Of a stretch of 64,000 bases of DNA, positions 3,001 to 48,264 are shown piece by piece. A model generated the notes under the pieces. That model searched no databases and was not told the origin of the DNA. It saw only the letters and a program-made list of their open reading frames with translations. A program made the translations under genes and the position numbers. How positions within the stretch are numbered: position 1 is the first letter of the stretch; the number at the start of each line of letters is the position of its first letter. The stretch is from a virus (taxonomy: Duplodnaviria > Heunggongvirae > Uroviricota > Caudoviricetes). The stretch is taken from positions 49,317 to 113,316 of the IMG/VR virus record IMGVR_UViG_3300038968_000013; one strand, given 5' to 3'.

Positions 3001-4017
3001 AATCACACCATCCAGGATTAGGTCAGTGAGGTTAAAGAATCCGTTTGCAAGGGACGGAAGGAGATTCGCGAAGCCCCGGAGCGCGGTGTTCGCGGCTTGG
3101 TCGAAGATGTCGCGCATTCCGGCGACCTTCTCTGTGAGACCGATGACCTCCTTAACGCCACCACGGAGCGCGTTGACGAAGTTCTCGTTTTCGACGACCG
3201 ACTTACCAAACTCCTCGGACAGCGCCCCGAGCATCTGGGAAAGGATGCCCATCTGTCCAGAGTAGTTCTGAACCTGCGCTGCTGCTGATCCACCGAAGCG
3301 TGCCTCGATGATCTTCAGCGCCTGCTCAAGCTTATGCGCCTTCGTGGCACCTTCATCCACCACGATGCCGAAGCGCGAGAGCGTGGCAAACTGACCTTGG
3401 AGTGCCTTACCAATAAGGAGAGCCGCCGCATTGACGTCCTTACCCATCGCAGTTGACAGGTCGAGGGATGCCTTTGTCAGTCGCTCGATATTTTCTTTGG
3501 TTGCACCGAACGCGGTAAGCTGGCCGCTAATGTTGACAATGACATCATCACCGACGCCAGTTAGTCGCTGATACTCGGTTGCCAGCTCTAGGATCTTGTC
3601 CTTGAGTCCGGTTGTGCCTTCCCCTACGTTACGGAGAAGAACGTCGAGCTTCGCAACGGCAACCTGCTTCTCTGAGGCGGCGGTAACGGCGCTGCGAACC
3701 GCATCAGCAAAGAGAGAGAACCCGCGCTGAATCTGAACCAGGGTACCGCGTAGTGTGAAGAACGCGAGGTTCCCCTGGAACACGCCGCGAGTCAGATCGG
3801 TAACCGACGCCCCAGTCTTCCGTGCCGCATTCGAGGCGCCGTTAAGGGCATTCGACGTTTGCTGGACGGTTGTAGTGTGGACCTTGATGTTGCCGCTAGT
3901 CTTCGCAATGGCGTTAGAGAGGTTGCCAATCTCCTGGGTAAGCCTCTGCACTTCAGCAGCACTTGCGCCTACATCAACTCGGAGATTAACTGTAACGTCA
4001 TTGTTGGCTGCAGCCAT
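1..4017 (-). CDS. tail tape measure protein (partial; C-terminus lies beyond window start)
   Basis: Minus-strand ORF from ATG at 4017 stays open to position 1 (>1330 codons), so it is absent from the track. Translation is Ala/Gly/Gln-rich with long coiled-coil-like stretches and Gly-rich hydrophobic segments. It sits directly downstream of the G/G-T chaperone pair. Confidence 0.85.
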   Translation of the reverse strand, partial: MAAANNDVTVNLRVDVGASAAEVQRLTQEIGNLSNAIAKTSGNIKVHTTTVQQTSNALNGASNAARKTGASVTDLTRGVFQGNLAFFTLRGTLVQIQRGFSLFADAVRSAVTAASEKQVAVAKLDVLLRNVGEGTTGLKDKILELATEYQRLTGVGDDVIVNISGQLTAFGATKENIERLTKASLDLSTAMGKDVNAAALLIGKALQGQFATLSRFGIVVDEGATKAHKLEQALKIIEARFGGSAAAQVQNYSGQMGILSQMLGALSEEFGKSVVENENFVNALRGGVKEVIGLTEKVAGMRDIFDQAANTALRGFANLLPSLANGFFNLTDLILDGVIALSKFAEMMYNVIKAMGGLASAIAQTAILYAGAQTLIILLTVAFTNLRIAILETGAAFLALPWGRLAALAAIAITAALSLTGVFDGLVEKLTDVGDGSNEFAQTSKEMQEALKAVRQDALNAAQGIKDLVNNSINLNTEFKNSVDALQKTAEELGVFDGLSLEMDPEKQQALQTYFQNLQTYLLDVYNKAVAAGVALDNMALAAANSIPGIAIGAYGPPAPEGKRTDPPKDKPKTNDALDSLKEEIEATRLEIKIREEGIAQARLVAETDALVAAGKKGVSAKSAELAAQLAKEKVALIEIQRAEADLKKVQDLLYDTPRDIQMIQARIVALQTLNQSTVKAVDIKKAEALAEAKVLAERAKTIPALQKEQLLRDAVTKATLENQESILSSAQQENASVNKSIELRAKELDLLTLVHAGKLSMEEAEIQLAKAQAESNGQTGENVELLARQEQAIEKLRKKIEDTTIDLGESINNIIDGLVDGILQGTNKGLDAMEIFKRSGQAIFGDMLKGMLKDKLGFDGKFRANFLNDLPAMVKGGADIIGGIWNGLFGGMSTGGDGSGGGWSQVANGIGSIAGIFGLTGQTGQAVQGAGSLAQFGLGAVNGNLGQVVSNTGSVVSVLKGIYNGFNAWRGGATITEAFNVAIGGASSQIAGAVGEGLANIAPGFVGYSDAVLGASTVPVGATSGAEAVAMGTQGATQVGVIGGIANALTSYTTWASFGILTAIVAAVEAFMGLNSLEEGRGNVFGNEGTRKLFMGGFDKFTMAVANFTAGLGSLSSFMGGGFWGGGTSPGGGSNASNLLGSFQRTQFGGAGAMDWANLFLTLNPGNPLAGMILPLYFFSMFTKPKTGGTVTRNLFEGFLEDKGRKHESRRFAPFWGNVPVWQDGEWIKGNFDRSLGQDFAKDFESSGQGTFTEGLREFIKLQGQSIGLSDKQIKQFEALGFVFKTSIIGDKGGNQSQRDFATIAAMLGSLAEGGANAATSIELLKLSLAKIDTPSNV

Positions 4018-4047
4018 AGCAACAGTCCTATAGTGTGGGGTTAAGGT

Positions 4048-4913
4048 TTAGACATCATCCTCGTCATCGAGGACAATGATTTCATCTTCGCCGTTCAGGA
4101 TTTGAAGTGCGAGCTGAATACGGGAGAAGATGCGTTCCCGGTCTTGCCCTTCGATGTTGTACGTGGTGTACGCAAAGAGCATGCGGTCGGTATCGAGGTA
4201 CCAACGCGAGGTTTTGTCTTTGGGATCGGTGTGCTTGGCGCACGCGAGACGGAAGACCTTCAGAGCGAAGTTTCCGGCCTCTCCCGCAGCGATGAAAGGA
4301 CAGAGGTCACAGTCCTCATCTTCGGGGTGCTCTCCCACGCAACATGCGCGGCAGAGCCCTGGTCGCGGCGAAAACCCGTTGGCTGTCTTTCGTTCGCAGT
4401 CAAAACAGTCAACGGGCTTTGTCGCATTTTGGAGGTAGCGGAAGAGGCGGACTATTTTCCCAGGTCGTCTTCGTCCTGGGCCTTGTCCTCTTCGTCCCAT
4501 TCATCCATGACTTCCTTGATGCGGTTAGCATACTTGTCCGGAAGCGCATTCAGATAAATGAGTTCACTGTCTGCTTGGTTGAAGGGAAGCTCACCACCGT
4601 TCGACTCCTGGACCTTCTTCAGCTCCGTGAGTGCGTCCGGATAGATCGCAATCTTCAGTGGCCCGGTCAGCGTATCGATCGTGAGACCGCGCCAGCCCTT
4701 AACCACACGACGTGTGTACGCACGCGCATGCTTCTCGCGGTCGACTTCCGCCACACCCTTACGGCCTGGGGCGATACACGCCTTACCAATCATGTCTCGC
4801 TCTTTTGGAGAGAGCCAGTGAATGTTTACAACAAACTTGTCCGCGATTACGACTTCCTTCTCGCGGTCTGGGATCTCGTTTACCTTCCCAGAAAGAAAAC
4901 CACCAACTGCCAT
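4048..4913 (-). CDS. tail assembly chaperones G (4452..4913) and G-T fusion (T part 4048..4461, reached by -1 frameshift)
   Basis: Two overlapping minus ORFs, with the downstream one in the -1 frame. A GGGAAAA heptamer lies just before the upstream stop codon, and both have acidic C-termini. The position between the major tail protein and the tape measure protein matches lambda G/GT. Confidence 0.7.
4455..4461 (-). other. programmed -1 ribosomal frameshift slippery heptamer G_GGA_AAA
   Basis: Minus strand reads CTG GGA AAA TAG. Slipping back 1 nt gives GGG AAA ATA GTC CGC CTC TTC, i.e. G K I V R L F, which matches the downstream ORF translation exactly. Confidence 0.7.
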
Positions 4914-5008: not shown

Positions 5009-6034
5009 TTAGGTGAAGACGAGCGTTAGTTCGCTGTCGTCGTTACCTGTTCCTACCGCTAGATTGTACTGCAGCTGCAGGGTGAGAAGACCAACGTCGT
5101 CTGCCTGCGTGACACTTTGCAGCTGACCCTTAGCAATCATCTGCATGCGCTTTCCAACTCCAGACCCGTGAGTAAAGTTGATGGTCTGGATGAAGCCGGT
5201 GCGAAGGTCATCGTAGAACTGCTGCGCATTAGCCGAGTCACAACCGATCGTGATCTGCAGCGTCGGTGAGCGCCCTACAATCAGCAGACCGTATAGACCG
5301 TCCGCTGAGTTCGCATCCTTATCTTCCTGAACGTCGATACCCGCATCAAGCGAGAACGACTTAAACTTCAGAGATGCCGCTGCAATTGTTCCCACGTTTG
5401 TGGTGATAGTGCAGCCCGAGCTTTCCATTGTTTCGGAAGTGTTACCCGCTGACTGGAAGTGCGCCGAGGTGACATTTTGTGCTGTCGTTACCGTGGGGTT
5501 ACCGTTAATGACACCCGTTAGCGTTGGATCAACCGTAATAACCTGACCCGCCGATCCAGCCATTGTGTACGTACCGAAAACACCCTTTAGCTTGTAAAGA
5601 AGTGCATTCGTGCCAACATCGGAACGCTGAACTTCGACAAGGCCGTCCTCGAAACCAGACGAGCGGAAGGTGTAGGTAAGCGAAGAAGATCCGGCCGATG
5701 CCGACTCAGACATACCGCACATGCGGAGAATGCGGCCAAGACGGAACTTCGGAGACTCGACTGTACCAGGGATCTGCGCCCCGCTGTTTCCGATTCCGAT
5801 AACCACAAGGCCAGGCGTCAGACGATAAAGCTGACGACCAACCGCATCGGAAGTCTTCGACATCGACTGACGAAGCTCCTGCAGGTTTACAAGGTCCGTA
5901 TCAATCTGAACCGGAGTGGTGTTCCGGAACTGATGGATACAGCTTGACATGTTGGGAGAGGTGCCGCCCCCATAGGTTGCCGTGGAGTTTACAGCCACAC
6001 TCATCGCAACGATACGTGATAGATGTGATGCCAT
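5009..6034 (-). CDS. major tail (tube) protein, putative
   Basis: 341-aa ORF immediately upstream of the chaperone pair, Gly/Thr/Ser-rich and beta-type in composition. The call rests on synteny. Confidence 0.6.
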   Translation of the reverse strand: MASHLSRIVAMSVAVNSTATYGGGTSPNMSSCIHQFRNTTPVQIDTDLVNLQELRQSMSKTSDAVGRQLYRLTPGLVVIGIGNSGAQIPGTVESPKFRLGRILRMCGMSESASAGSSSLTYTFRSSGFEDGLVEVQRSDVGTNALLYKLKGVFGTYTMAGSAGQVITVDPTLTGVINGNPTVTTAQNVTSAHFQSAGNTSETMESSGCTITTNVGTIAAASLKFKSFSLDAGIDVQEDKDANSADGLYGLLIVGRSPTLQITIGCDSANAQQFYDDLRTGFIQTINFTHGSGVGKRMQMIAKGQLQSVTQADDVGLLTLQLQYNLAVGTGNDDSELTLVFT

Positions 6035-6047: not shown

Positions 6048-7130
6048 TTACATAACGCCACTGCGTTTCATGTAGTTGGTAAGTGAGTTTGCGACTTGTC
6101 TCCCGGTTGACTCCCACGTCAAGTGTTGGATGGACCGTGATGCGCGCTTCCCCATTTGTAGAGCGCGTCGATAATCGCGCATGATTGATTCCATAGCCTC
6201 AATGGTGTCTGGAATACTTGCCAGCGCACTATTGAGAACTGTCTCTAAACCGTCGATCGTTGCATACCGATTGTTGTACGGCTGCCACGATACATATTTC
6301 ACCGTCTCGCTCGACGTGAAATCTAAGACACCACTGTACTTCGTAACGATGCACGGAAGCCCGGTGGACATTGCCTCGATCAGCGTCAAACCAAATCCTT
6401 CCGCTGCTGTCGGGAAAACGAACCCGTGGCTGCGGTGATAGGTTTCTGCGAGGTCTTTGACGTGCAGCTTCCGGAAATCGAGGACGATGTTATCCTTCCA
6501 AACGACTCCGGGTGAATGCTGCGTATACCCGTCTAGTAGCGCGCGACCAACCGCAGGTTCATAATCAGCGGTGGTCAGCTTGCAGTACAGGTGGCAGTCT
6601 TTCCTGCCGTAGAACTTCTTATTCCAGACAGCCTCGATAACGTCATACCCCTTACGAGCTGACGGGCTGCCAACAATGAGCCACTGGAACGAATCTCCCG
6701 CAGCCCAGGTCCGCTTCTTGTAGGGGAAGTTTTCGTGCTCCACCCCGAGCGGAATGATCTCGATGTCACACCCGACGTGCTTGCGAAAAATGTCGTAGCA
6801 AAACTGCGTCGGGACAATCAGGTGATCCGCGTTCCACAGATACGGTCGGTGCTCCTCTGGGAAATCTGCGGATTCCCACATCGAGAAGAGCACATTCTTC
6901 TTACCGCGAATCGGTCGGAAGTTGCGCGGCGAAGCAACGTGAAAGGCTACCTCGCTGCGCGGGTTGAGGGTGACGCCGTACTTCCGTACCGTAGTCAGCA
7001 GATGGCGGTTTGTCTCACACCATCCAAGATCCCACGTTTGGCCCTCGATATTGCGGTTGGTCCAGTGTACGCCAGGCATTACTGAAACAGCATTCCCAGC
7101 GCATCTTGCAGACGCTTCGTGCGAACCCAC
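6048..7130 (-). CDS. glycosyltransferase, GT-B fold (GT4-like)
   Basis: Motif EGFGLTLIEAMSTGLPCIVT matches the GT4 E-x7-E region. A likely internal start at M18 (7079) abuts the upstream gene with a 1-nt overlap. Confidence 0.8.
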   Translation of the reverse strand: MGSHEASARCAGNAVSVMPGVHWTNRNIEGQTWDLGWCETNRHLLTTVRKYGVTLNPRSEVAFHVASPRNFRPIRGKKNVLFSMWESADFPEEHRPYLWNADHLIVPTQFCYDIFRKHVGCDIEIIPLGVEHENFPYKKRTWAAGDSFQWLIVGSPSARKGYDVIEAVWNKKFYGRKDCHLYCKLTTADYEPAVGRALLDGYTQHSPGVVWKDNIVLDFRKLHVKDLAETYHRSHGFVFPTAAEGFGLTLIEAMSTGLPCIVTKYSGVLDFTSSETVKYVSWQPYNNRYATIDGLETVLNSALASIPDTIEAMESIMRDYRRALQMGKRASRSIQHLTWESTGRQVANSLTNYMKRSGVM

Positions 7131-7813
7131 TTCTCGAAGAACACCTTCGCGTTCTTTGGGTCCAGCACGTTCATGTCACGCGTGCCGCCGAAATTGTGCG
7201 TGACCTTCGCGTCGTACACCATGAGTGGATATTGACCGAACGCCTCAACTTGGCGCAGACAGTAATCCACATCTTCAAACGAGTAGAAGTACTCGGTGCT
7301 CAGTCCCCCGAGCGAGTCCCACGCATCCTTACGGACCAGAACACAGGCAAACGTCACCCACGGGCAGTATAGCGACTTGACCACATTCTCCGGGTCGATT
7401 CCCGCTTGAATGTGTACCGGCATCATATCACTGTGCCGGAAGCCGCAGCCCGCATGAATGAGCTGATTTTTCGTCGTAACGATCTTACAGCCCAAGAGAG
7501 GTAGCGCGCGCTGTTTCCATAGCGCATCAATACAGTCAGGGTCTACGATGACATCATTGTTGACGAGGAGAAGGTGTGACCCTATCGCCCCCCGTGCCCC
7601 GATGTTGTTCCCTTCCGAGAACGACGTATTGTACCCCGGCGTAATGATGGTCCATCCGTATTCACAGGCAATGTCGACCGTTTCTTGGTCGGTGCCATTT
7701 TGAATCAGGATCTTCTCCACAACCGGGAAACGATCCGGGATGGATGCCGCGAGACGTGCAAAGTAATCTGGCCGATCCTTCGACAGGCAGACTACGGTAA
7801 TACCTTCAACCAC
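7079..7813 (-). CDS. glycosyltransferase, GT-A fold (GT2-like)
   Basis: N-terminal VVCLSKDRPDYF is a typical GT2 start. LVNNDVIV provides a DxD-type motif. Confidence 0.7.
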   Translation of the reverse strand: MVEGITVVCLSKDRPDYFARLAASIPDRFPVVEKILIQNGTDQETVDIACEYGWTIITPGYNTSFSEGNNIGARGAIGSHLLLVNNDVIVDPDCIDALWKQRALPLLGCKIVTTKNQLIHAGCGFRHSDMMPVHIQAGIDPENVVKSLYCPWVTFACVLVRKDAWDSLGGLSTEYFYSFEDVDYCLRQVEAFGQYPLMVYDAKVTHNFGGTRDMNVLDPKNAKVFFEKWVRTKRLQDALGMLFQ

Positions 7814-7915: not shown

Positions 7916-8395
7916 CTAGCTCTTAACGTATGCTTCGCGGGGATTACCCAGCACGGTCGAGAATCGGGCTACGAATTGCACGTAGGCTCCGGGCTGAAAC
8001 TCATCGACCTCTGAAACCGCGACCATCGTTTGGTAGGGGACCAGATCTACTGATGCCCCACCAATGCTCCAAGGTGTGCCGGAAAGAAGAACTTGCTTCA
8101 CATCGGCTGCCATCTCGGCACCAACTTCTGCAGCAGAATAGCATGTTTGGCCACTGATTACAAGGTGTATGTCAAGTTCGGATTGGACCCCATCTACCCA
8201 AGTATTGAGGTTTTCTTCCTCGACGCCGCCCCAAATAAAGATACAGGGCTGAGCCGTCTGGGAATCGAGGGTAGCCTCATTAGGCATCAGCTCGTAGACT
8301 TCCCGGCAGTTAAACGAGTGACCGTTGGCCACCGAGATATTTCGGAGCGCAGCGGCTAGATCCTTGACGATTTGTGTACGAATTGACAGTGCCAT
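7916..8395 (-). CDS. tail terminator / tail completion protein, putative
   Basis: 159-aa ORF between the neck genes and the tail genes. Called by synteny only. Confidence 0.35.
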   Translation of the reverse strand: MALSIRTQIVKDLAAALRNISVANGHSFNCREVYELMPNEATLDSQTAQPCIFIWGGVEEENLNTWVDGVQSELDIHLVISGQTCYSAAEVGAEMAADVKQVLLSGTPWSIGGASVDLVPYQTMVAVSEVDEFQPGAYVQFVARFSTVLGNPREAYVKS

Positions 8396-9081
8396 TACTT
8401 CAAGTTCCCTAGGTCTAGGAGGTCGACTAGACGGGTCGCAATCGCGGGGCCGACATCAGGAACGATCCGGTCCCGAGCCTCCTGCAGGTAGCGGCGCCCA
8501 ACGCCCTTTCCTCCACCAATCTTCACATGGGTTGCCGCAGCAAAGAGCGGAATGACCTTATCCCGCTGTTGCCCACGACCCCGGTCTTCCCCACGGGTGC
8601 GGCGTCGCTTCCCGCGACCCTTAAGGGCCTTGACGCCGTAAAGCACGTCATTCCACCAGAAGGTCCGATCGAATAGCTCGCGAGCCTGGAGTGCGGTGAA
8701 CTTCGGTACCCCAGCTGCCGTCATAGCAGCCTTAAGGGGAATCGTCATGACCTTCGCCTTACGGGGCTCCGCGTCAGCTCCAAACTCCTGCGCACCACCG
8801 TAGATCGGAATCTTGCCATTCTCAGGCTTGAGGATTCCGAGCTTCGCCGTGATCGTGTCGTTATCCTTTTCGACCTTACCCATGATCGAGGCACGCAGCT
8901 TACCGGTGCGTGGGGTAAGGATCTTCCGCGTTAGGTTGTCCTTCGCGTACACTTCCGCCAGCTTCATCGACGCGCGCAGCGTATCTTCGGTCGCCTTGAC
9001 GATCTTCGTATCGATCGTCTTCAGGCGACGAACCAGCGCCTTGAGCGGCTTCAGGTCGACGGCGACCTTCACACTCGCCAT
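8395..9081 (-). CDS. head-tail joining (neck) protein, putative
   Basis: 228-aa ORF downstream of the gp6-like adaptor. It carries an Arg/Lys-rich insert. Called by synteny only. Confidence 0.3.
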   Translation of the reverse strand: MASVKVAVDLKPLKALVRRLKTIDTKIVKATEDTLRASMKLAEVYAKDNLTRKILTPRTGKLRASIMGKVEKDNDTITAKLGILKPENGKIPIYGGAQEFGADAEPRKAKVMTIPLKAAMTAAGVPKFTALQARELFDRTFWWNDVLYGVKALKGRGKRRRTRGEDRGRGQQRDKVIPLFAAATHVKIGGGKGVGRRYLQEARDRIVPDVGPAIATRLVDLLDLGNLK

Positions 9082-9659
9082 TACAGTCGAACCACCGCGT
9101 AGGCAGACAGAATCGAGTTCACTGCCGGAAGAAACTCCAGCGACGTGTAGGACGCAGAACTATTCCCAGTGCCCTGTGACTGCAGCCCCGACTTACTGGC
9201 TAGCTCGATCTCATGCCCCGCCTGTAGGATGCACGCGAACTTGATGTCGTCCGGAATCGGATCAAAGCCACCCACGTAGATTACCTGGACCGTGTTAAAT
9301 CCCTCAAGAAACGCGGTGTAGCGCAGCTTGAGAATTCCCGCCTCGGTGTCAACGCCGTACGACGTGGTGGACATGGCTGCAGCGGTTGAGAAATCACTCG
9401 TTGACGATTCCTTCACAGACGTCACGCTGGCAATCGGAAGTGCATGCAGCTGGAGCACTGACTGCTCTGCTGCTGGTGAGAAGTACTCCGTGTACGTATC
9501 CTTCGTGAACCGACGTCCGATCTTCTTCTCGAAGCGACTCGATACCGACTTGATCGCGAGCTGGTAGAATTCTTCGTCCGCAACATCGACCGTCGCCGCG
9601 CGAATCTTACGGAAGGATGGATGCAGCTTCAGTTCATCTAGTGTGCAAAACTCTGCCAT
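9081..9659 (-). CDS. head-tail connector (gp6-like adaptor) protein
   Basis: N-terminus CTLDELKLHPSFRKI resembles the gp6-like connector family start (..LDE.K.HLRI..). The position in the operon fits. Confidence 0.5.
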   Translation of the reverse strand: MAEFCTLDELKLHPSFRKIRAATVDVADEEFYQLAIKSVSSRFEKKIGRRFTKDTYTEYFSPAAEQSVLQLHALPIASVTSVKESSTSDFSTAAAMSTTSYGVDTEAGILKLRYTAFLEGFNTVQVIYVGGFDPIPDDIKFACILQAGHEIELASKSGLQSQGTGNSSASYTSLEFLPAVNSILSAYAVVRL

Positions 9660-10051
9660 TACGAGGTTACCTTCCGTAGGTTCTCAACGCGGAAACGAAC
9701 TTCGTGGGCGCCCTGCTTCGTTGGAGAGCCGTAGAAGAAATCGAAGCGCGCGATGTGCAGCTCTGTATTAAAACGCTCGTCGATGATTGGGTTGTCCGCT
9801 GACTGCATATTCCACGTCAGTAGCCCCGAGGTTGGATGGATCTCGACGTTGTTTGTGTTCTTGACGTCCTGCTCATTCCGCCCGTTGATGATATTCGCGG
9901 TCAGGGGTGACGGTTCGGGAACATCAGCATTGAACAGTGTCAGCGTAATCGCCGTAAGCGAGGCGAGCGGGATCACTGTCCCCGTCTCATCCTTGAGCGT
10001 GGCGGTATAAATTGCTGCGGTATCCTGTTTGACGCGGAAAGTATTGACCAT
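9659..10051 (-). CDS. hypothetical virion-module protein
   Basis: 130-aa ORF, translationally coupled to its neighbours. Confidence 0.4.
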   Translation of the reverse strand: MVNTFRVKQDTAAIYTATLKDETGTVIPLASLTAITLTLFNADVPEPSPLTANIINGRNEQDVKNTNNVEIHPTSGLLTWNMQSADNPIIDERFNTELHIARFDFFYGSPTKQGAHEVRFRVENLRKVTS

Positions 10052-10054
10052 GGG

Positions 10055-10486
10055 TTACTCTGTCAGTTGGTCGAGGGAGGTCTGAAACACCGTCTGCTTC
10101 TTTGCGGCTTCTTCGTCGGAGAGAGCAGAGCGATACAGATGCTCCGTTGAGCAGGCGGGACACAGGACGGTGTGACGCTCACCATCATATGGCGGCGCCC
10201 CAATTAGCTCTGAAATGTCCTGCCCGCAGTGTGTGCGGAGGTCCATCAGCTTTACGAGGCTGGTGTTCCACGCACCAAGCGTGTCTTCCGTGGGCAGCTC
10301 CGAAGCTCCGAGAATTTCGTTGAGCGCAATCGTCAGCTGCTTCAGCCCATGCCAATCCTGTTCGTCGATAAGGCGATGACGCTTGGCATTGATTGCACGC
10401 ATCCGATCTTCATGGAGACGGCGCGGCCCACGGCAGTAAACCTTGAGGAATCCCCTATTGAATTCCTGTTGCTGTGCATTCGTCAT
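10055..10486 (-). CDS. hypothetical virion-module protein
   Basis: 143-aa ORF in the same operon. Confidence 0.4.
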   Translation of the reverse strand: MTNAQQQEFNRGFLKVYCRGPRRLHEDRMRAINAKRHRLIDEQDWHGLKQLTIALNEILGASELPTEDTLGAWNTSLVKLMDLRTHCGQDISELIGAPPYDGERHTVLCPACSTEHLYRSALSDEEAAKKQTVFQTSLDQLTE

Positions 10487-11301
10487 TAGGTGCTGCTACC
10501 TACAATCTGTAGCGTGAACGTGCTCTTGAGCGCGCCCGTGCTATTCGAAAGCGTCTGCTTGATCCACAGACCTGAGGCTTCTCCCGCCGCGAGAACGCCC
10601 GCTGCTGCCACTTCACCAGACACCGCAGGAATCTGTGTTGCGGCATTCGTGGTGATGAAGGTGACGGAGCTTGGGCTAGACGGCGCCGTGAGACGGTTGG
10701 TTGTGGACTGCGCCGAACCGGTCGCAAATCCCCACTCGATTACGGTGTCCGGATCAGCGGTACACGCGATCGTGGCATTCGTAAGCGAGAGGGTTCCGTG
10801 ATTGTTCTTCGCGTAGATCTTTTCGTAACGATCGACAGGGGAGCCGGTGGGAGTCTGCGAGTCGTAGAACAGCACGCGCACGGCACGCTCACCCGCAGCG
10901 ATAGTCGTGAAATCCGGGGTGTCCCCATCATCCCTTATTGTAATCGTTCCCACCGCGTTGGTGAGTGCGGACCCAGATTGAAGGCGAACCTCCGCAAGTA
11001 GGATGCGCTCAAAGACCTTTGCACCTGTGGTAAAGGTGTTGGCGCTTGCTGAGATGTTGATGTCCTCAGTGTCAATAACACCGGTCGCGAGACGTCCAGT
11101 GATACGAACCTTCTTGTCGCCGTCGCTTGTTCCACTCGATGCCACCTCAACGGCGGTTCCCGTAGAACCAGGGATCTGTCCGGTCGAGAAGACTGGACGA
11201 GTCTTGGTTGTCGTTTCGATAGCGCCACCCGACGTTCCGCTGTCGGACGTCGGCATATTCGCGCTGGTGTAAAGTACTAGATCAGTAGCTGCGATACTCA
11301 T
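10486..11301 (-). CDS. Ser/Thr/Gly-rich beta-type structural protein (decoration or fibre candidate)
   Basis: 271 aa, very S/T/G-rich. The start overlaps the upstream stop codon. Confidence 0.4.
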   Translation of the reverse strand: MSIAATDLVLYTSANMPTSDSGTSGGAIETTTKTRPVFSTGQIPGSTGTAVEVASSGTSDGDKKVRITGRLATGVIDTEDINISASANTFTTGAKVFERILLAEVRLQSGSALTNAVGTITIRDDGDTPDFTTIAAGERAVRVLFYDSQTPTGSPVDRYEKIYAKNNHGTLSLTNATIACTADPDTVIEWGFATGSAQSTTNRLTAPSSPSSVTFITTNAATQIPAVSGEVAAAGVLAAGEASGLWIKQTLSNSTGALKSTFTLQIVGSST

Positions 11302-11313
11302 GTTGTTACTCCG

Positions 11314-12720
11314 TTAGTTCAAGACATCCTCGTCCGTAATGTCTGCGACAGTGACAGATTCGTCTGTGAAAGTTGCCATCTTTAGTTCTTCGGTAGCAGT
11401 AGCTAGCGTCAAAGCTTCCCCACTGATGGTGAGAACCTGTAGTGACTCTAGAACCATCTCCGCTGCACGGACCATCTCGTTTGTGAACTTGATGAACCGA
11501 ATCAGCGAGGGAAGGCCGATAGCCTCAAAAGGGATACCCTTAGAGCTAGCAACCTTTTGTAGGTTCTCGTAGGCTAGCTCGAAGGCTTTGATATTCTTCG
11601 TCAGGTTTTCAAAAGCCACCTGACTATCAGACCGTAGCGTTACTAGAGCTTCGATCTGAACGGCGCGAGACGCCGAGATAAGGCCCCCGCGTGCTTCGTA
11701 CGGAACCTCTGACGTCGATTGCACACCCGTCACGTTTTCAACGGGTACAATAAGGGAGGATGTACGGCTCCCGAGATTTTCTAGCGCGACATCGATCCCG
11801 TGCTGGATCTTAGAGACCGCCTCTAGGGCTGCCTGGCGAGACGCCTGGAGTCCTACCAGCGCCTCATACGCTCCGACCACACTTACCGCCGAAGTCTTAA
11901 GTGCCTCAAATTCTACCACAAATTGCACCGAAAGCATAGAAGATGTTGCTTCAAATGCTACCGGAACGCCCCGTGCTAGCCCGCTAAGGTTTTCCCAATG
12001 CGCCTGGACCGTAGCCTGGAGGGCTATGATGTTCTCGATCGTGGCGTCATGGGTAGAAACGACCTTCGCCAGCGCCTCGTAGGACGTGGCAAGATCCTTG
12101 GCAATTTGCTTCTTTGCCTCAAAGCTTACTGCCGAGCTGTTCATGGTGCCTGCGACCGCCTCCAGAAGAGGGGTCTGGGTGACCAGAATCCCGACAAGCG
12201 CCTCGAAGCTAATGTCCTGTGCCCGCGCCAGGGTGACCAGCGACTCAAAGCTTACCGTGCTTGGCTGGACCGCCCGGAGCAGGGCTTCAAATTGGTTCAC
12301 CCGGCTGGCCGCGAGCCCAACCACGTCCTCGTACGACGGGGTTAGACTCGTAGCCAGTGAGACCAGGGCTTCAAGAACGGCAGGTTGATTTGCCGCAACC
12401 GTATTCGTAGCTTCGTAGGAAACCTGCAGCGCCTTCGCCAGGCCGACGATATCCTCGTGTGAAACATCACTAGAGAGCGAGACTTTAACCAGGGCTTCGT
12501 AAACAGCCTGGAGCCCAAACGCGAGCGAGGTCAGGTTCTCAATACCTACCGTACTGCTGGCTACTTGCCCAACCAGTACCTCATACGCGATCGGAGAGAC
12601 GGTCGAGATCCCGACGATGTTCTCGTAGGCGACGCTGCGGGTCTGTTCTAGCTTGACGATGTTTTCGAAGACAGTCTGAACTTCGGTACCAACGTCGTTG
12701 TCATCAATCAGTAGTAGCAT
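11314..12720 (-). CDS. tandem 14-residue-repeat protein (x-S/A-Y/F-E-A/N-L/I core), function unknown
   Basis: About 30 consecutive repeats are visible in the translation (VAYENI, IAYEVL, AVYEAL, VSYEAT, PSYEDV, NQFEAL, VSFESL, ISFEAL...). Confidence 0.6.
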   Translation of the reverse strand: MLLLIDDNDVGTEVQTVFENIVKLEQTRSVAYENIVGISTVSPIAYEVLVGQVASSTVGIENLTSLAFGLQAVYEALVKVSLSSDVSHEDIVGLAKALQVSYEATNTVAANQPAVLEALVSLATSLTPSYEDVVGLAASRVNQFEALLRAVQPSTVSFESLVTLARAQDISFEALVGILVTQTPLLEAVAGTMNSSAVSFEAKKQIAKDLATSYEALAKVVSTHDATIENIIALQATVQAHWENLSGLARGVPVAFEATSSMLSVQFVVEFEALKTSAVSVVGAYEALVGLQASRQAALEAVSKIQHGIDVALENLGSRTSSLIVPVENVTGVQSTSEVPYEARGGLISASRAVQIEALVTLRSDSQVAFENLTKNIKAFELAYENLQKVASSKGIPFEAIGLPSLIRFIKFTNEMVRAAEMVLESLQVLTISGEALTLATATEELKMATFTDESVTVADITDEDVLN

Positions 12721-15700
12721 TAGTCAAAGTCACAAAAGTAGTAACCACACTGCTTATCCTGCGAGCATGGGAGTCCAATCTTACTATCTGCACCAGCTGA
12801 GCAAGCATAACAATCGGCTGCCGTAGAGCAGGCACGTCCCTTTAGAAAGCCACTCTGGCAGGTAGTGCTACAGGTCGGCGCAGTGTTGCAGACACCATCT
12901 GTCTTCTTCCCCAGGTTCCCAGCGAAATCCACATTTGCAGCACAGGCGCTAAGGAGATCACAGTAGGCGCTTGACCCCTCCTGAGTATAATGGACCTTAT
13001 CAGCCAAGTATGGGTGCGAGGCGTCCTTCGTAAGGATTGAAGCGCCACCCTTGTCAATGAAGTACTGGAACGAATCGACAAAATTTCCACCTGTCGCGAT
13101 TTGCTCGGCTACTAGCCAAGATCGCCAGGAAATGACATCTTGAGTTCCTTCAAACCACCCAGTCTGCTTCCCGTTTTCTACGCCCGAATTAGTCGGAGCT
13201 GAGGTCACCCAAACGTTCTCAACCACCTTACAGACTCCGCTATCGCATTGTCCACCGGAGCTACATGTTTGGCCATTCTGTGTCCCACCGCGACAGCGCA
13301 TCGTTGCCTTATCGTCAATTGATCGCTTGCCCCGAATCATACGCGCAAGGGTATTAGACGTTGCACAGATACCGCTACAGCCAACTGCTCCCGTGGCTGG
13401 GGTACACCCGCTGTAGGAGTCCGCATGAGTAGCCGCTGACGCGGTTGCGACTACGCTGGACCGTGCTGTTACGCAGACGTTAGAGCTACATGTCGTTGTA
13501 GTGATAGTGCCACAGGTACCACTTGGGCAGTCTGCTGGCTTTGTGCAGGAGAGCCCATTGTTTGCGCCGCCGGAGCACGTCGAGGGAAATGGGCCCGCAC
13601 CACCGAGGTGGCACTCTGAGCTTGAAGAGCAGGAGCAGGGCCCAGAGATGTTTGCTAACCCGAATGAGGTTGAGTTCTTAGCCATAGCGCAGAACGCCAC
13701 AAACGGGTAATCCTCTGAGTCCCAATTTGACGTCTCGGGACAGGAGCACTCTTTTCCCTGGTCGGTGCCGTACCCGCCAGCAGCTGTCCACGACTCACAG
13801 AACCCATTCTTTAAGATTCCCCCGTAGGACGAATTATTATAGGGAGCCGCCGTCGCAACCGGGTGAACCGTGTTGTTAGCGATCTGAATGAACGCTACAT
13901 CAATGGCTAGTCCACCTGTTCCAGTAATTGGAATGGTTGTGATCTTGTTTCCGGTTCCACTTTGCCCAGCCGCAAGCGTGTAGAAATCGCGATCGATGTC
14001 TCCCATGGAAGCACCGCCACGGGCCTGATCGTAGATAGCCGAAGCCTCAATCATGCTCGCCGCGCATGCAACCTTAACAGTAGATTGATCGGTTCGCGAA
14101 TCACCCATTAGGCCAACTCGCTTGTCACCCGGCAGCACATCGGAGGGGATCGGCGTGGGGCTTTGACTTACAACCTCTAGGTCCGCAAAAGTAATACGCG
14201 CCTGGTCCCCATTTTTGTGAAAAACGGTCTTATGAACCTCACCGATATAGTCATCAATCCCAGCATAGCTAATAGTGCTATTGTCGGGGTTTGTATTGAT
14301 GAGAAAAGGCACCGGGAAGTACAGCGTATCGCCAGTTCCGTCGTCTGGAACAAAGTTGTTCAGATCAAAGGATGTGCCAGTCTTAACGTTCGGCGTTCCG
14401 GCGATATCGCGGAGGCTGAGTTGCACGCCAGCCCCTAGGGTGTCGCTCCCCTCTGTGTCTTGCGCCGCAACATTAAAGACCGCAGCAAGCGGCGTAAAGC
14501 TACGGCTCGTTGGCTCCTGGAATTCAACCTCGCGGAGCCAGTCGGCATCATCGACACTAGTGTTTTCTGAAATACGAGTGGTGTTTCCATCCGGCTCGTT
14601 CGCAACGGTTCCGTTTCCGGTTAGACACTTATACTCATTGCCAGCCCCAGAGCACCCAGTCCCGACCCATCCTAGGTCCGCTCCGTTAGCGTCTACCCAC
14701 AGGGATTCAGAGACCCAGTTTGTTGATGGCGAGCTGCCTGTTTGCACAATCAGATTGTCACCAAAAACGCGCGAACGCTCTCCACTGTCATCCGGCCCAA
14801 AGAGCACACGATCCGGGGAAACAAGGCTGGTGTATGGACTTGTGAGGCCAGTTGTCGTACAGGATGCGTTAACGCATGACCCAGCAAGAGAGCAGTTGTT
14901 GCTATTGCAGTCCCCGTTTACAGTACAAGTCGCACCAGCGTTTGTGCCGCCAACGCAAGCCTTCATGAGGTTGTAAGTAGGCCACGTTGTGTTACACTCA
15001 CAGTCGGTATTCGTCGCGCAGGCTAGGTTCAGCGTTCCTCCGTTTGCCAGGCGGGAACGAATAGAGTCTCCCCCTGTGCATTTCCCCACCCGTTGAGTTC
15101 CAAGTCCGCGCTGATAAACGACGGGTAGATTGCTTGTGCATACGCCTCCGGTCCCGCAGTCTGCGTTGACGTTGCATACTGACCCGCTAGGGGCCGTTCC
15201 GGCAGTGCAGAGCTTGCCAAACTCGCCGCTATAGAACTTACAGGTTACTTCACCGGTTCCGTTTACCTGCTCAACTGCCATTACGTTTTGGCTGTTTTGC
15301 GCACGGGAAATTAGACCAAAGTAAGAGGGGGAGCACTTCGCCTCATTTGGGCGAAGCTCATCGCATTCGTTAATGCAGTGACAATCGCTTCCGTCGCAAC
15401 TAAGGGTTTCGTTTTCATCGCGAACGCACGCCGTTGGGTTGCTTCCCATTGAAAGGTAATCGGGACGGCCAGGTAGGCAATCCGCGACTGTAGTACAGGA
15501 TTGCCCGCATACGGTATCCACCATTTCAACCGACTGCTGGCATCGACCAACGACCTCCTGCGCATTCCCGTAAAGTACGGCAAAGTGCTCAAGGGGCTGA
15601 GAGCAAGCACCAGAGATAGTATTTAGACCCTGGTCTGTGCATGTCTGCCAATGATAAAGCGAACACCCCTTTTCGGTGCTTGTGGCAAGGGAGATAAGGG

Positions 15701-16157
15701 GACGACGCTGTGGCTTGCAGTACCCGCTTCCGCAGTTTGCTGCCGAGTTGCATGGGGAACCATTACGGGTCGGACCAACGCAAATGGGCATAGCCCCCAG
15801 CATAGGGAGCGTGTACATTCCGGCTAGGAGTTGCGTGTAAGTCGACCCGAGAAGCACGGTGCCGTTAGAATTGACTCCATCCGCGCTGCTACTGTCAAAG
15901 TCAATCAACATGCGGTTATTCACAGCCGACGTAAACAATGTTGTGTTGAGACTTGGCCAGTACGGATTAGTACTAGCAGAAATCGCGACGCTGTTAGAGC
16001 GATATCGCGGCGCTGTCCCTCCGACCCCACCTGTAAAGACCGAGGTCTTAACCGGCGTGTCGTTTGTTGCAACGTCCGATCCGGCAAAGAACTGAGTTGT
16101 TGCAGCTTGCGCAGGCGAAGCAAACAGTAAGAAGAAGTAGAGAATGATCCAATACAT
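12720..16157 (-). CDS. 1145-aa secreted Cys-rich protein
   Basis: Classic Sec signal peptide MYWIILYFFLLFASPAQA|AT. Many CxxGxC / CxSGxC-type Cys pairs (CGSGYC, CGTGGVC, CNSNNC, CDSGVC, CPSGTC). The start overlaps the upstream stop codon. Confidence 0.65.
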   Translation of the reverse strand: MYWIILYFFLLFASPAQAATTQFFAGSDVATNDTPVKTSVFTGGVGGTAPRYRSNSVAISASTNPYWPSLNTTLFTSAVNNRMLIDFDSSSADGVNSNGTVLLGSTYTQLLAGMYTLPMLGAMPICVGPTRNGSPCNSAANCGSGYCKPQRRPLISLATSTEKGCSLYHWQTCTDQGLNTISGACSQPLEHFAVLYGNAQEVVGRCQQSVEMVDTVCGQSCTTVADCLPGRPDYLSMGSNPTACVRDENETLSCDGSDCHCINECDELRPNEAKCSPSYFGLISRAQNSQNVMAVEQVNGTGEVTCKFYSGEFGKLCTAGTAPSGSVCNVNADCGTGGVCTSNLPVVYQRGLGTQRVGKCTGGDSIRSRLANGGTLNLACATNTDCECNTTWPTYNLMKACVGGTNAGATCTVNGDCNSNNCSLAGSCVNASCTTTGLTSPYTSLVSPDRVLFGPDDSGERSRVFGDNLIVQTGSSPSTNWVSESLWVDANGADLGWVGTGCSGAGNEYKCLTGNGTVANEPDGNTTRISENTSVDDADWLREVEFQEPTSRSFTPLAAVFNVAAQDTEGSDTLGAGVQLSLRDIAGTPNVKTGTSFDLNNFVPDDGTGDTLYFPVPFLINTNPDNSTISYAGIDDYIGEVHKTVFHKNGDQARITFADLEVVSQSPTPIPSDVLPGDKRVGLMGDSRTDQSTVKVACAASMIEASAIYDQARGGASMGDIDRDFYTLAAGQSGTGNKITTIPITGTGGLAIDVAFIQIANNTVHPVATAAPYNNSSYGGILKNGFCESWTAAGGYGTDQGKECSCPETSNWDSEDYPFVAFCAMAKNSTSFGLANISGPCSCSSSSECHLGGAGPFPSTCSGGANNGLSCTKPADCPSGTCGTITTTTCSSNVCVTARSSVVATASAATHADSYSGCTPATGAVGCSGICATSNTLARMIRGKRSIDDKATMRCRGGTQNGQTCSSGGQCDSGVCKVVENVWVTSAPTNSGVENGKQTGWFEGTQDVISWRSWLVAEQIATGGNFVDSFQYFIDKGGASILTKDASHPYLADKVHYTQEGSSAYCDLLSACAANVDFAGNLGKKTDGVCNTAPTCSTTCQSGFLKGRACSTAADCYACSAGADSKIGLPCSQDKQCGYYFCDFD

Positions 16158-19361: not shown

Positions 19362-20351
19362 TTACAGATCCTTAATGATATCAATGATACCTTGCGCGGA
19401 TCGTTCCCACGTAAACGCTTGAAGGTCTTGGTGAGCACGCTTTCCGACGATGAGCGAGTTGTCGTAATCGTGCATCACCGCTGCCATCTGCCTTGCGAGG
19501 CCCGGAAGATCCACGATCGCAAACTCGTACTTGCCTGTTGGGTTCGTAACTGCGGGGCCACCCATTGACGCTTCGATCCGCTCTAGCTTGTGCGGAGCAA
19601 AGAAGCAGTTACGGCGATTCGCAAACTCCAGCATCCCAGAGTACTCAGTGGTAATCGTGGGAAGCCCAGAGGACATCGCCTCGGCAACGGTCAAACCCCA
19701 GCCTTCGCCCATGGTCGGCATCACGAAACAGTGCGCCGAATGATACAGCTCGATCATTTCCTCGCGTGTAACATTTCGCCCATCCGTGATGGTGTTGCCA
19801 CGCTTGAAAACGTTCTGAAGATCTGGGTTGTGCGAGGTAGTTTTGATGTACAGTTCAACGAAGGGAATCTCTTTGAAGAAGTGATCCCAGACCACTCCTA
19901 GATTCCACCACCCCTTACGAGCATTAAAGGCGCCCACCCACAAGAAACGAAACTTCTCGTTCTGATCTTGTGAAATCGAGCGCCTTACGTAGGGGACATG
20001 ATCTGTCCCGAGAGGCACCACCTCCACGCGCTTCCCCGTCCACTTACGAAAGTATCGCTGGCAGAACTTGGAAGGCACGATGATAAGGTCGGCCTTGCGC
20101 ACCCGATCAAGCACATCTTGCGTGCAATCGGGTGTTTCGTACATCGTGATCAGAACATTAAACTTGCCTTGAAAGTGCTCAAACGCGTGCGGAGCACAGT
20201 AGGAAATATGAATGGGGCTGCGCCCGGAGATCTGAACCCCAAGCTTTTGAAACGCGGACTTCGTTCGAAAGATCGCGTTGTGATACCCGTAGTAGTTCCC
20301 GCCAGGAAGGTACTCGCCTTCCTTCGTGAACCACGAAACACTGACTGCCAC
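19362..20351 (-). CDS. glycosyltransferase, GT-B fold (GT4-like), paralog of 6048..7130
   Basis: EGWGLTVAEAMSSGLPTITT motif. Overall collinear with the 6048..7130 protein. Confidence 0.8.
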   Translation of the reverse strand: MAVSVSWFTKEGEYLPGGNYYGYHNAIFRTKSAFQKLGVQISGRSPIHISYCAPHAFEHFQGKFNVLITMYETPDCTQDVLDRVRKADLIIVPSKFCQRYFRKWTGKRVEVVPLGTDHVPYVRRSISQDQNEKFRFLWVGAFNARKGWWNLGVVWDHFFKEIPFVELYIKTTSHNPDLQNVFKRGNTITDGRNVTREEMIELYHSAHCFVMPTMGEGWGLTVAEAMSSGLPTITTEYSGMLEFANRRNCFFAPHKLERIEASMGGPAVTNPTGKYEFAIVDLPGLARQMAAVMHDYDNSLIVGKRAHQDLQAFTWERSAQGIIDIIKDL

Positions 20352-20694: not shown

Positions 20695-22020
20695 TTAGCT
20701 GTAGGTCTTAGCGACCGACCACGAACCCGTGTTAGATCCATCAGCCTGATTTACGCAGACGAAAGCGAAACGCTCCATCACACGCATCACAAGCTCGCCA
20801 GTGGTGAAACCGGCGTGAGGCGAAATGTCGATCGACATACGCTTGCGATCACCGAAGATCGCGTGCTTGAAGTCACCGTAGATCAGGAACTTCGAGCCCG
20901 AAGTGTCATCCGCAGCCTTCGGCATCACTGTCGAAGTGTAAACCGGACGACCAAGCAGACGGCGAGGCGAGGCTTCCGTTACAGAAGACACGTTGTCCGC
21001 AAGGTTGAACGGACGACCGTTGTTGTCGACCATAGCGGTCTGGATCTGGTTCCACACGTAGTTGGACATGACCCATACGCCATTCTCCTGAAGCTTCTCA
21101 TCGACCTTATTGTAGATTGCAATCAGGTCGTTCCACTTGATGTTCTTGAACGAGGTAGAACCGGAAGGAAGGGTATGGATACCCGCCGTACCAGTCTCGA
21201 CCATTACACCAGTGAACGGAGTGTGGTCGGCACGAAGCACCTGGAAGTCTTCCGCAAGGGCCACAGCCTCTGCGAATACGTCGACCAGGAAGGACATCAG
21301 ATCCGGAGTCGAATCCTCGTCCACTTCGAGCGAGATGTTGTCCAGAGCCATGAGGCGAGTTGCCACCATCTCTGGACGGGTGAACGCCTGAGTCGACTGA
21401 CCTACGCCACTCGCTTCAGTTGTCACCGCCTTGTTTGCGCCAGACGACGTGATGTTCTGGCCTACAAGAGTCGTAGGGCCATAGGTCGCGACCGGTAGAC
21501 GCATGACCTCACGGGTCATCGGCATGATGCGGCAGAGCTTGCGAGCAAGACCAAAGTTGCTCACAAGGCGGATGATTTCGTTGGCCTGCTCCGGTGGAAC
21601 AAGCACACCACCGCCCGCGTCAGGAGTACCGCCAGTGTAGACGTTACCTTCCTTCTGCGTACGTGCGTTCTTCCAGAAATCATACTTCTCATCGAGGCCG
21701 CGAGCCTTGCGAGCAAGGTCCACAACCATCATTCCTACACCCTCACGGGCGCGCGCACGGGCATCTTCCCCATTAGCAGCGGTGTAGTGCTTTTCACCGC
21801 GAGGAAGCTGCTTGTCCATCTCGTCCATGCGCTTGTTGACGTTCTCTAGAAGCCCACGGGTCTGCTCAAGGGCCGCACGAACTTCGGCGGTTTCCTTATC
21901 AATCGCAGCTCCCTTGGACTCAAACTCACGGAGGGCGGTTTCTACCTTCTCCGTCTGCTCAAGAACCGCATCCTTCAGCTTGTAAAGGGGGTTCTCGTCC
22001 TTAACATGAATGTCAGCCAT
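20695..22020 (-). CDS. major capsid protein, HK97 fold, with N-terminal coiled-coil (delta/scaffold-like) domain
   Basis: 441 aa. The N-terminal 100 aa are coiled-coil. The position after the protease and the composition are typical of HK97-family MCPs. Confidence 0.75.
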   Translation of the reverse strand: MADIHVKDENPLYKLKDAVLEQTEKVETALREFESKGAAIDKETAEVRAALEQTRGLLENVNKRMDEMDKQLPRGEKHYTAANGEDARARAREGVGMMVVDLARKARGLDEKYDFWKNARTQKEGNVYTGGTPDAGGGVLVPPEQANEIIRLVSNFGLARKLCRIMPMTREVMRLPVATYGPTTLVGQNITSSGANKAVTTEASGVGQSTQAFTRPEMVATRLMALDNISLEVDEDSTPDLMSFLVDVFAEAVALAEDFQVLRADHTPFTGVMVETGTAGIHTLPSGSTSFKNIKWNDLIAIYNKVDEKLQENGVWVMSNYVWNQIQTAMVDNNGRPFNLADNVSSVTEASPRRLLGRPVYTSTVMPKAADDTSGSKFLIYGDFKHAIFGDRKRMSIDISPHAGFTTGELVMRVMERFAFVCVNQADGSNTGSWSVAKTYS

Positions 22021-23322: not shown

Positions 23323-23626
23323 TGATGCTCCTGTGATACTGTTCCTCGCGCGTGGCGATCGTATGGCAATTCGCGCAAAGCAAAGTGAGTTCCCCAAGGA
23401 GGAACCGTTGTAAAATGCGTTGCGCTTGTTGCAGATTTACTGCCGTCGCGCGGAAACCACGTCGCCGATCTTCAGCTCCGTCGTGGTATCGATGGTGAAA
23501 CTCTAACGCCCGCCAGTCTGAAAACCGGCATTGGGAGCATCTTCCACCGACTTGCTCAATGATCCACTGTCGGTATTCAAACCGACGTTCATGAGCCTGG
23601 GACTTCTCTTCCGCGCTATTAAACAC
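23294..23626 (-). CDS. HNH endonuclease
   Basis: EFHHRY...LLCANCH motif pair. Confidence 0.65.
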   Translation of the reverse strand: MFNSAEEKSQAHERRFEYRQWIIEQVGGRCSQCRFSDWRALEFHHRYHDGAEDRRRGFRATAVNLQQAQRILQRFLLGELTLLCANCHTIATREEQYHRSINEDHGSKVS

Positions 23627-45982: not shown

Positions 45983-46185
45983 AACCCTTACCTCCCTTTA
46001 TTGTACGTTTAGGCTAGAGCGTTTACGGGGAGCCTTGCGCGACACAATGGAGACACGCGACCACTCACTCCCACTCCGATGTTGACATACGAAGTTGGCA
46101 GCTGCCGAGACCGAACGAAACGGACCTACTCGGCTAAACTGCGCTGCCTTTGAAACGACGAACCACTGTCTGTCGAATGTCATTG

Positions 46186-46431: not shown

Positions 46432-46439
46432 GCTTTTTC

Positions 46440-48153: not shown

Positions 48154-48264
48154 GTAGCAAGTAGGACGCTCGCGCGGTTCGGAGCGTCTTACATGATATC
48201 AACCGGTCAAGGTTGGTTTCCCGTGTCGCATGGTGCGGCATAGTATCTAGGAAAGGTTCGAACA

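Follow-up and report, generated by a model that had tools for sequence, protein, structure and literature searches.

The 64,000-nucleotide stretch of tailed-phage DNA considered here (the window; Caudoviricetes, positions 49,317 to 113,316 of IMG/VR record IMGVR_UViG_3300038968_000013) encodes a 468-residue protein, REP, that consists for most of its length of tandem 14-residue repeats with one invariant glutamate per unit. Judged from its sequence, this repeat is undescribed in the resources searched and defines a widespread family of environmental-phage proteins with a conserved partner, PART, which in the window is encoded directly downstream of REP. REP is best filed among the phage fibre stalks, an already known kind of structure; the favoured reading, to which slightly better than even odds are given, is that REP is the stalk of a fibre whose C-terminus sits on the virion, probably near the head-tail junction, and whose N-terminal end carries a variable adhesin.

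The periodicity of REP is strict. Glutamate occupies position 5 in 28 of 28 units, which share the profile x-V-[AS]-[FY/LI]-E-[AN]-[LIV]-V-G-[LVI]-A-x-S-x; 18 consecutive glutamates (residues 19, 33 ... 257) lie at exactly +14 spacing, followed by six at residues 272-342 and four at residues 357-399, and both register shifts are single-residue insertions. Measured against 500 shuffles, the BLOSUM62 autocorrelation has decaying peaks at lags 14, 28, 42, 56, and 70, with z=10.8, 8.9, 8.8, 7.3, and 6.0, respectively, and the longest run of glutamates at +14 spacing reached at most 6 across 5000 shuffles. An earlier note on this gene had described about 30 tandem repeats with a fixed 14-residue spacing over nearly the whole protein and the core x-[SA]-[YF]-E-[AN]-[LI]. 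The spacing is borne out by the autocorrelation and the glutamate run, so that the periodicity has the statistical support whose lack would have counted against the note; the core agrees with the unit profile, and the tandem arrangement stands with the count corrected to 28. Tandem Repeats Finder detects no repeats in the DNA of the gene, the periodicity being present at the protein level only, and the units have a mean identity of 38% at the nucleotide and 25% at the amino acid level; the array is thus an old one, preserved by selection and not the product of a recent expansion. The repeats are followed by a 60-residue tail, of which the final 40 residues form four 10-residue units. The tail units begin with Glu or Asp and have alternating hydrophobic residues; they are seen in REP proteins encoded directly upstream of PART, and tails of the same 10-residue period occur in the REP-family protein P0020 and in a protein of locus L020 (8618..9988). 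The identical REP protein was called on seven metagenome contigs.

Searches of known families with REP were uniformly negative. Pfam gives no match above its cut-offs (the best is DUF2610, E=0.007), the PHROGs no significant match (only an unannotated family, E=0.0017), and NCBIfam no match; PDB sequences match neither the REP protein nor a 77-sequence profile of the repeat, and Foldseek searches of PDB and BFVD with a REP model return no significant match, only generic long-helix proteins at E>0.03. Among GenBank phages there is no protein match for REP, for PART or for the Cys-rich protein encoded directly upstream of REP, and no nucleotide match for the 23-kb structural region. In a Pfam scan of 61 REP relatives no family falls on the repeat tract, and the Pfam models Phage_fiber, Phage_fiber_2, and Collagen match neither REP nor any of the 61. 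No description of 14-residue repeats in phages was found in the literature. The repeat had not been recognised in the earlier note either, and no clear match to a known repeat family has emerged on REP. Word-indexed homology search found no relatives with the single REP protein or with the 77-sequence repeat profile, and back-translated pattern scans of IMG/VR found no match with a single REP or PART sequence, although an alignment of PART did work.

The REP family surfaced only through an exhaustive HMMER search of 1.84 billion representatives, which gave 111 REP-family clusters at E<=1e-3 (best E=3e-44); a simple lattice scan finds the same 14-residue lattice in 109 of the 111 proteins. Members are defined by at least seven units of the form x-h-[PNA]-[YWFLIV]-E-[AS]-L-x-G-[LVI]-[AS]-x-[TS]-x at fixed 14-residue spacing, a definition to which the window REP conforms with its 28 units (E=1.2e-64 with the family hidden Markov model, HMM). 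The 2222 distinct units have the consensus x-h-[P27%/N14%]-[Y/L/W/F]-E-[A/S]-L(57%)-x-[G30%]-[L/V/I]-[A/S]-x-[T/S]-x; they were chosen on the Glu lattice, so that the family-wide invariance of Glu is partly by construction. A few members place Asp on the lattice in the Glu position, as in P0092 ('S-L-D-A-L-L-Q'), and the units of an L009 protein (13208..15889) lack the aromatic residue ('A-D-E-S-L-L-G-V-A'); this leaves [ED]-[SA]-L-x-G-[LIV] as the minimal conserved core.

Repeat number ranges in the family from about 7 to about 60 units. Members are usually built of a variable N-terminal region, with a median of 259 residues ahead of the first repeat, then the repeats, and finally a short tail, which has a median length of 68 residues and often appears beta-rich by eye. 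Laminin_G_3 (LamG) lies at the N-terminus of 14 of 61 relatives, with DUF2341, CBM96, and BNR found occasionally, and 19 members, the window REP among them, are nearly without an N-terminal domain. A variable N-terminal domain, repeats, and tail in this order make up the layout of an adhesin on a stalk. The contexts of REP homologs (loci L001 and L006-L008) and the annotated loci retrieved with PART as bait all carry tailed-phage genes. Isolate genomes are nearly devoid of the REP/PART pair, which was found on one 2.5-kb contig of a metagenome-assembled genome among 185,579 species.

PART accompanies REP across phages that otherwise have little in common. A homolog of about 245 residues is present in all four loci fetched through REP homologs; the window PART is 32-39% identical to these homologs by blastp and 35-42% in a multiple alignment, and the homologs are 39-55% identical to one another. 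Portal and capsid pairs from the same loci and the window are alignable in a few cases only, at 22-26% identity, the others giving no match at E<=1e-3; PART is better conserved than the portal or capsid protein of the same, otherwise barely related phages. The PART family comprises at least 255 clusters, nearly all of 244-246 residues, all labelled 'hypothetical' and none with a Pfam domain. It has a conserved N-terminus (MSIAASDL..LY..AN.P.DD), a K-N-x-H-G motif, and the invariant polar residues D7, D20, R35, E79, E98-R99, E138, Y159, K165-N166-x-H168-G169, D183, and R203. A 244-residue open reading frame (ORF) elsewhere in the window, 7079..7813, was considered as the partner and rejected, as it is not alignable with the PART family and has a weak match to a glycosyltransferase PHROG (E=1.5e-5).

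Linkage of REP and PART is strong. Baiting IMG/VR and metagenomes with PART gave, together with three contexts from exact look-up (L030-L032), 51 distinct loci. A same-strand REP-family ORF is present in 17 of the 21 PART loci that have at least 3 kb on both sides; in 16 loci REP is found directly upstream of PART, the arrangement of the window, and in 11 it is found 0.3-2.5 kb downstream. The place of the pair in the genome varies: it follows the portal gene in L001, L008, L021, L023, and L031, stands beside the connector genes in the window, L020, L032, and L033, precedes the tape measure gene in L010 and the lysin gene in L007, and follows baseplate genes in L030. It therefore has the behaviour of a self-contained accessory module. 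One 174-kb contig (L011) carries two partner paralogs and three repeat proteins (1498..4072, 8009..8761, 10001..10753, and 11223..13709), which suggests several fibre types per virion.

The orientation of the stalk is indicated by rare domain fusions. In P0007 and in an 893-residue protein of L032 (12171..14852), LamG and repeats are followed by a C-terminal tail-terminator domain, present in L032 as two tandem copies in one chain; these domains match phrog_4204 'tail terminator' (E=1.7e-8 and 7.8e-15). An HMM built from the fused domains matches stand-alone genes in the window (E=3.3e-7) and in L020 (E=1.9e-19), where the gene sits just upstream of the tail protein gene. L012 has a few repeats ahead of a match to DUF2460 (E=7.5e-6, below the cut-off of Pfam), the distal-tail (Dit-like) protein of gene transfer agents; the stalk would there have another kind of anchor. 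The C-terminus of these fusion proteins is therefore the virion end, placed on a tail or neck ring protein, and the lectin lies at the far end. The L012 proteins (421..1221 and 1221..2285) are tandem paralogs, each with a few N-terminal 14-residue units and a DUF2460 domain. No separate terminator gene is evident in the L032 locus; three L032 chains would give a pseudo-hexameric terminator ring, fitting a trimeric fibre.

The divergence of REP from a close relative has the same polarity. The ortholog in L033 is 69% identical overall, and the neighbouring genes are 93-99% identical to those of the window. Over residues 225-420 the two REP proteins share 79-96% identity per 28-residue block (about 91% on average; ~93% for the C-terminal half), as against 39-71% per block (~53% overall) over residues 1-224, where the repeat tract is nevertheless without an insertion or deletion; similarity of the DNA ends at window position 12624. 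In L033 the Cys-rich gene is replaced by an unrelated gene containing a 'NGYAALDGSSKL' motif, one common in phage fibre proteins, and the REP tail is short of exactly two 10-residue units (20 residues; two units remain, compared with four in the window). A conserved proximal half, a swapped distal half, and a swapped neighbour together form the mosaic pattern typical of phage host-recognition fibres. L033 also has a GIY-YIG-like gene between REP and PART and HNH_3 genes after PART and after the terminator gene, all absent from the window; such homing endonucleases may drive the mosaicism of the region.

The analysis points to REP being an elongated, regular rod, probably an oligomeric one. A single-sequence AlphaFold2 model is uninformative (predicted local distance difference test, pLDDT, 42.7); the model based on a 38-sequence alignment has helices at residues 8-82, 88-194, 200-259, 266-319, 341-393, and 404-450, that is, elongated helical segments with no globular domain. 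Hydrophobicity has power at periods of 3.5 and 2.8, but also at 2.0. Hydrophobic residues occupy unit positions 4, 7, and 10 and a face of small residues positions 6, 9, and 13, with a bulky core in only one of the two heptads per unit; this pattern would fit one short amphipathic helix plus a linker in each unit. Of the family units, 81% contain Gly or Pro and 45% contain Pro, clustered at positions 3 and 8/9; among the window units the share with Gly or Pro is 61%. A 14-residue beta-roll or beta-spiral would likewise be compatible with two turn-like positions in each unit. Direct-coupling analysis, run on 1690 three-unit windows, has its strongest couplings inside a unit at i/i+2, the i/i+14 couplings being confounded by the similarity of units within a protein; the i/i+2 couplings hint at extended structure, or equally at Gly sliding between positions 8 and 9. 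By standard geometry, a helix of the 394 repeat residues would be about 59 nm long, and a beta-roll of them, at 4.8 Å per unit, about 13 nm.

Several known fibres offer partial parallels. Fibritin (gpwac) of phage T4, the 486-residue neck whisker at the head-tail junction, has an N-terminal anchor, irregular heptad segments forming short helices separated by breaks that contain Gly or Pro, and a C-terminal foldon. REP is of similar size, is predicted to form segmented long helices, and has relatives fused to a neck ring protein, the terminator; it differs from fibritin in its reversed polarity, strict 14-residue unit, and invariant Glu, and no fibritin or foldon match to REP is found in Pfam, PDB sequences or Foldseek. 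The frequency of Gly and Pro in the family also seems too high for an ordinary coiled coil. The head of YadA, a trimeric fibrous adhesin, is a left-handed parallel beta-roll with a 14-residue unit and two turn positions. REP shares with it the period and two positions per unit rich in Gly, Pro or Asn (3 and 8/9), but YadA is bacterial and lacks an invariant Glu, its NSVAIG-type motif is absent from REP and the consensus differs, the Hep_Hag/YadA Pfam models do not match REP even at E<=10, and the AlphaFold2 model lends a beta fold no support. In the fibre shafts of adenovirus, reovirus, and PRD1, pseudo-repeats of ~15 residues with alternating hydrophobics and a conserved Gly/Pro turn form a triple beta-spiral that carries a distal binding domain. 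The turn-like Gly/Pro positions are REP's only resemblance to such a shaft: the adenovirus-type shaft has a variable period of 15 or more, no invariant acidic residue, and a C-terminal knob, whereas the REP period is strictly 14, and the Pfam model Adeno_shaft does not match REP. Repeats of the YadA, adenovirus-shaft or collagen type were accordingly rejected for REP, as no such model matches.

T4 Hoc, with outward N-terminal binding domains, a short C-terminal attachment to the virion, and weak adherence to glycans, has the polarity and the glycan-adherence role proposed here for REP; it is unlike REP in being a string of Ig-like domains that binds capsid hexamers and has no dedicated partner gene. 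The phi29 head fibre gp8.5 is a trimer with a stem of short helix and turn units, encoded next to the capsid gene (PMC6542822). Its units of about 13-15 residues, each with one amphipathic stretch, are comparable in principle to those of REP, but there are only about 5-6 of them, the capsid-binding base is at the N-terminus of the same chain, and Glu is not conserved; an hhalign comparison of the REP profile with the gp8.5 stem gives a probability of 0.1%, and 3QC7 is absent from the PDB-sequence and Foldseek matches.

These observations lead to the following proposal for the REP fibre. The 28 units would form a long, regular, probably oligomeric rod, and the C-terminal half with its 10-residue-unit tail would attach to the particle, with PART as the probable mediator and the head-tail junction or its vicinity as the most likely site. 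The N-terminal end would point outward and carry a host- or glycan-binding function, which in most relatives appears to be fused in cis (the ConA-like lectin Laminin_G_3, DUF2341 or CBM96). In the phage of the window, whose REP lacks an N-terminal domain, the adhesin is probably provided in trans by the Cys-rich protein of 1145 residues, the upstream gene of which is possibly coupled to REP and co-varies with the N-terminal half of REP. Such a fibre would hold the adhesin tens of nanometres off the particle for a first, reversible contact with host-surface glycans. The register would most likely be set by a contact that the invariant Glu makes repeatedly between chains or with a partner, whether as a hydrogen bond, as a salt bridge or in a metal site; this last step is speculation.

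Several observations weigh against this proposal. The window REP itself is without a lectin domain, and the terminator fusion is found in only 2 of about 130 family members. The varying position of the module means that synteny does not fix the attachment site. PART, for which no fold or function is recognisable, has no relative among PDB sequences, Pfam or NCBIfam and matches only an unannotated PHROG. The alignment-based REP model is of low confidence (mean pLDDT 60.5, about 90 around residues 190-220; predicted template modelling score 0.30), and its continuous helices conflict with the frequency of Gly and Pro in family units. A bolder form of the fibre proposal, tentative at best, would make REP and PART an undescribed, horizontally mobile two-gene fibre module of environmental phages with a new fibrous fold, a ladder of Glu contacts (between chains, with metal or with a partner) possibly installed or read by PART, and the capacity to act as a universal spacer for varied ring proteins (terminator, Dit) and adhesins.

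Attachment to the capsid instead of the tail is a rather doubtful alternative. REP would then be a head fibre and PART its capsid-decoration base, a split version of the phi29 gp8.5 design. The module does sit inside the block of head genes or directly behind it in the window, L020, L001, L008, L021, L023, and L031, and the unit length of the gp8.5 stem is comparable; but the module is found among tail genes in L030, L010, and L007, every domain fusion that is informative joins the repeats to a tail ring protein (terminator or Dit-like) and none to a capsid protein, and the comparison of the REP profile with gp8.5 is negative. The conservation of PART in phages whose capsid proteins are barely alignable is also awkward for docking on the capsid. 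Nor is REP likely to be an internal or transient assembly factor that serves as scaffold, ruler or template for the polymerisation of PART or another subunit, one per unit. In favour of that idea are the 14-residue register, kept without insertions or deletions despite divergence to about 50%, and the tight linkage of REP and PART; in L008, L021, and L023 the module is placed between portal and capsid, the usual site of a scaffolding gene, and the helical model resembles tape-measure and SMC-like proteins in Foldseek, with non-significant E-values. Lectin or carbohydrate-binding domains at the N-terminus would make no sense on an internal ruler, however, and the wide range of repeat numbers, the fast-evolving distal half, and the replaced neighbour, the last two typical of host-facing proteins, also speak against it. 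The phage moreover already has a protease/scaffold-type gene and a tape-measure-sized gene of 2133 residues with chaperones. A tape measure identity was rejected for REP, which has no match to tape measure families in the PHROGs or Pfam; the 2133-residue gene is separate and follows overlapping chaperone-like genes.

Compatible with the fibre proposal, although improbable, is the idea that PART is an enzyme and REP its substrate, the Glu residues being modified or cross-linked (ester, isopeptide or glycosylation) or loaded with metal; such chemistry would then govern how the fibre behaves. PART is of constant length and rich in invariant polar residues, Glu is present in every window unit and is the defining residue of the 2222 family units, occasionally replaced by Asp, and the window, L001, and L006 have glycosyltransferase genes inside the module or close to it. 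Against this stand the absence of any enzyme-family match for PART in Pfam, NCBIfam, the PHROGs or PDB sequences, the partly constructed nature of the family-wide Glu invariance, and the lack of a sign of any chemistry; invariant residues are equally expected of a ring-forming structural protein. It is very improbable that REP is non-structural (a host-takeover, defence or secreted factor) or a spurious ORF. No annotated homolog of REP exists in Pfam, the PHROGs, NCBIfam or GenBank phages, as might be expected in that case, but the gene is packed tightly into a structural operon with overlapping or 12-nt junctions, the protein is conserved in relatives while the DNA diverges, and the family of at least 111 clusters is found only in phage structural regions. 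A spurious ORF was rejected on the ground of this conservation.

Judged from its genes, the window belongs to a divergent, siphovirus-like tailed phage, the capsid protein of which is no more than 26% identical to that of any GenBank phage. REP lies inside the structural operon, since the gene order is TerL, portal, protease, capsid, REP, PART, adaptor/HCP, Neck1, terminator, tail protein, chaperones, and the 2133-residue gene (Table 1). The earlier note had placed REP between the Cys-rich gene and the connector genes; it does follow the Cys-rich gene, the stop codon of which overlaps the REP start (TAATG), but the next gene downstream is the uncharacterised PART and the connectors come later. 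The Cys-rich gene and REP are possibly translationally coupled. PART starts 12 nt past the REP stop codon and is preceded by GGAG. The 143-residue gene after PART has no Pfam, PHROG or NCBIfam match, and it matches the genes that follow PART in L001 and L008 by blastp (E=1e-8 and 3e-7).

Table 1. Coordinates of the features discussed, in the window unless another locus is named.
Feature	Position	Strand	Remarks
TerL	25969..27441	-	
Portal	23660..25957	-	
Protease	22108..23397	-	
Major capsid	20695..22020	-	
Glycosyltransferase	19362..20351	-	Followed by genes of 140, 497, and 440 aa; all between major capsid and Cys-rich gene
Cys-rich gene, 1145 aa	12720..16157	-	66 Cys; directly upstream of REP; candidate distal partner of the stalk
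REP, 468 aa	11314..12720	-	Coding sequence including stop codon; ORF list, ATG start
REP N-terminal half, residues 1-224	12049..12720	-	Putatively distal, fast-evolving; comparison with L033 ortholog
REP repeat tract, residues 15-408	11497..12678	-	28 units of 14 residues, two of 15; invariant Glu at unit position 5
REP C-terminal half, residues 225-433	11422..12048	-	Putatively virion-proximal, conserved; comparison with L033 ortholog
REP C-terminal tail	11329..11448	-	Four 10-residue units: ESLQVLTISG / EALTLATATE / ELKMATFTDE / SVTVADITDE
PART, 271 aa	10486..11301	-	Directly downstream of REP
143-aa gene	10055..10486	-	After PART; weakly conserved with post-PART gene in L001 and L008
130-aa gene		-	Follows 143-aa gene, before HCP/adaptor
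HCP/head-tail adaptor	9081..9659	-	
Neck1	8395..9081	-	
Tail-terminator-like gene, 159 aa	7916..8395	-	phrog_5185, E=5.5e-4; HMM of fused domains, E=3.3e-7
Two glycosyltransferase genes	6048..7130, 7079..7813	-	Between terminator and tail protein
Tail protein	5009..6034	-	
Two overlapping chaperone-sized genes, then 2133-aa tape-measure-sized gene		-	After tail protein
Homing-endonuclease-like genes (locus L033)	2149..2895, 3692..4174, 7180..7698		

The Cys-rich protein has no match in Pfam, the PHROGs, NCBIfam or GenBank phages. Its N-terminus is hydrophobic and resembles a signal peptide (MYWIILYFFLLFASPAQA), which is unusual for a gene within a phage structural operon; the protein contains about six Cys modules of ~22 residues (C-x-G-G-x3-G-x2-C-x5-C-x-S-G-x-C) and, at residue 685, a GDSRTD motif resembling block I of SGNH hydrolases. 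Close to the module, L001 (13600..20149) and L006 (12030..12962) also carry genes for glycosyltransferases and sugar aminotransferases; glycosylation of the virion is possible, perhaps on the Ser/Thr-rich part of the REP units. Outside the operon, the GC skew changes sign at ~46000..54000 and long ORFs pass to the plus strand, marking a divergently transcribed block that is presumably an early or regulatory region. The minus-strand ORFs 61161..62777 and 54711..55796 match PHROG 850 'RNA-binding protein' and PHROG 200 'lipoprotein', respectively.

A phage's fibres determine the surfaces to which it adheres, and the stalks of fibres belong to a small set of known folds. REP, with at least 111 clusters, and PART, with at least 255, are invisible to Pfam, PHROG functional annotation, NCBIfam, PDB, and GenBank phages. 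A stalk of such strict periodicity, in which one acidic residue is invariant and which has a conserved partner, is a clean structural target and may represent a new fibrous fold; should that fold prove an ordinary segmented coiled coil, the finding would amount to no more than a new family of phage whiskers. The stalk could also serve engineers as a modular spacer of tunable length, and the two families provide two new models for annotating the adsorption module in uncultured phages of soil and sediment.

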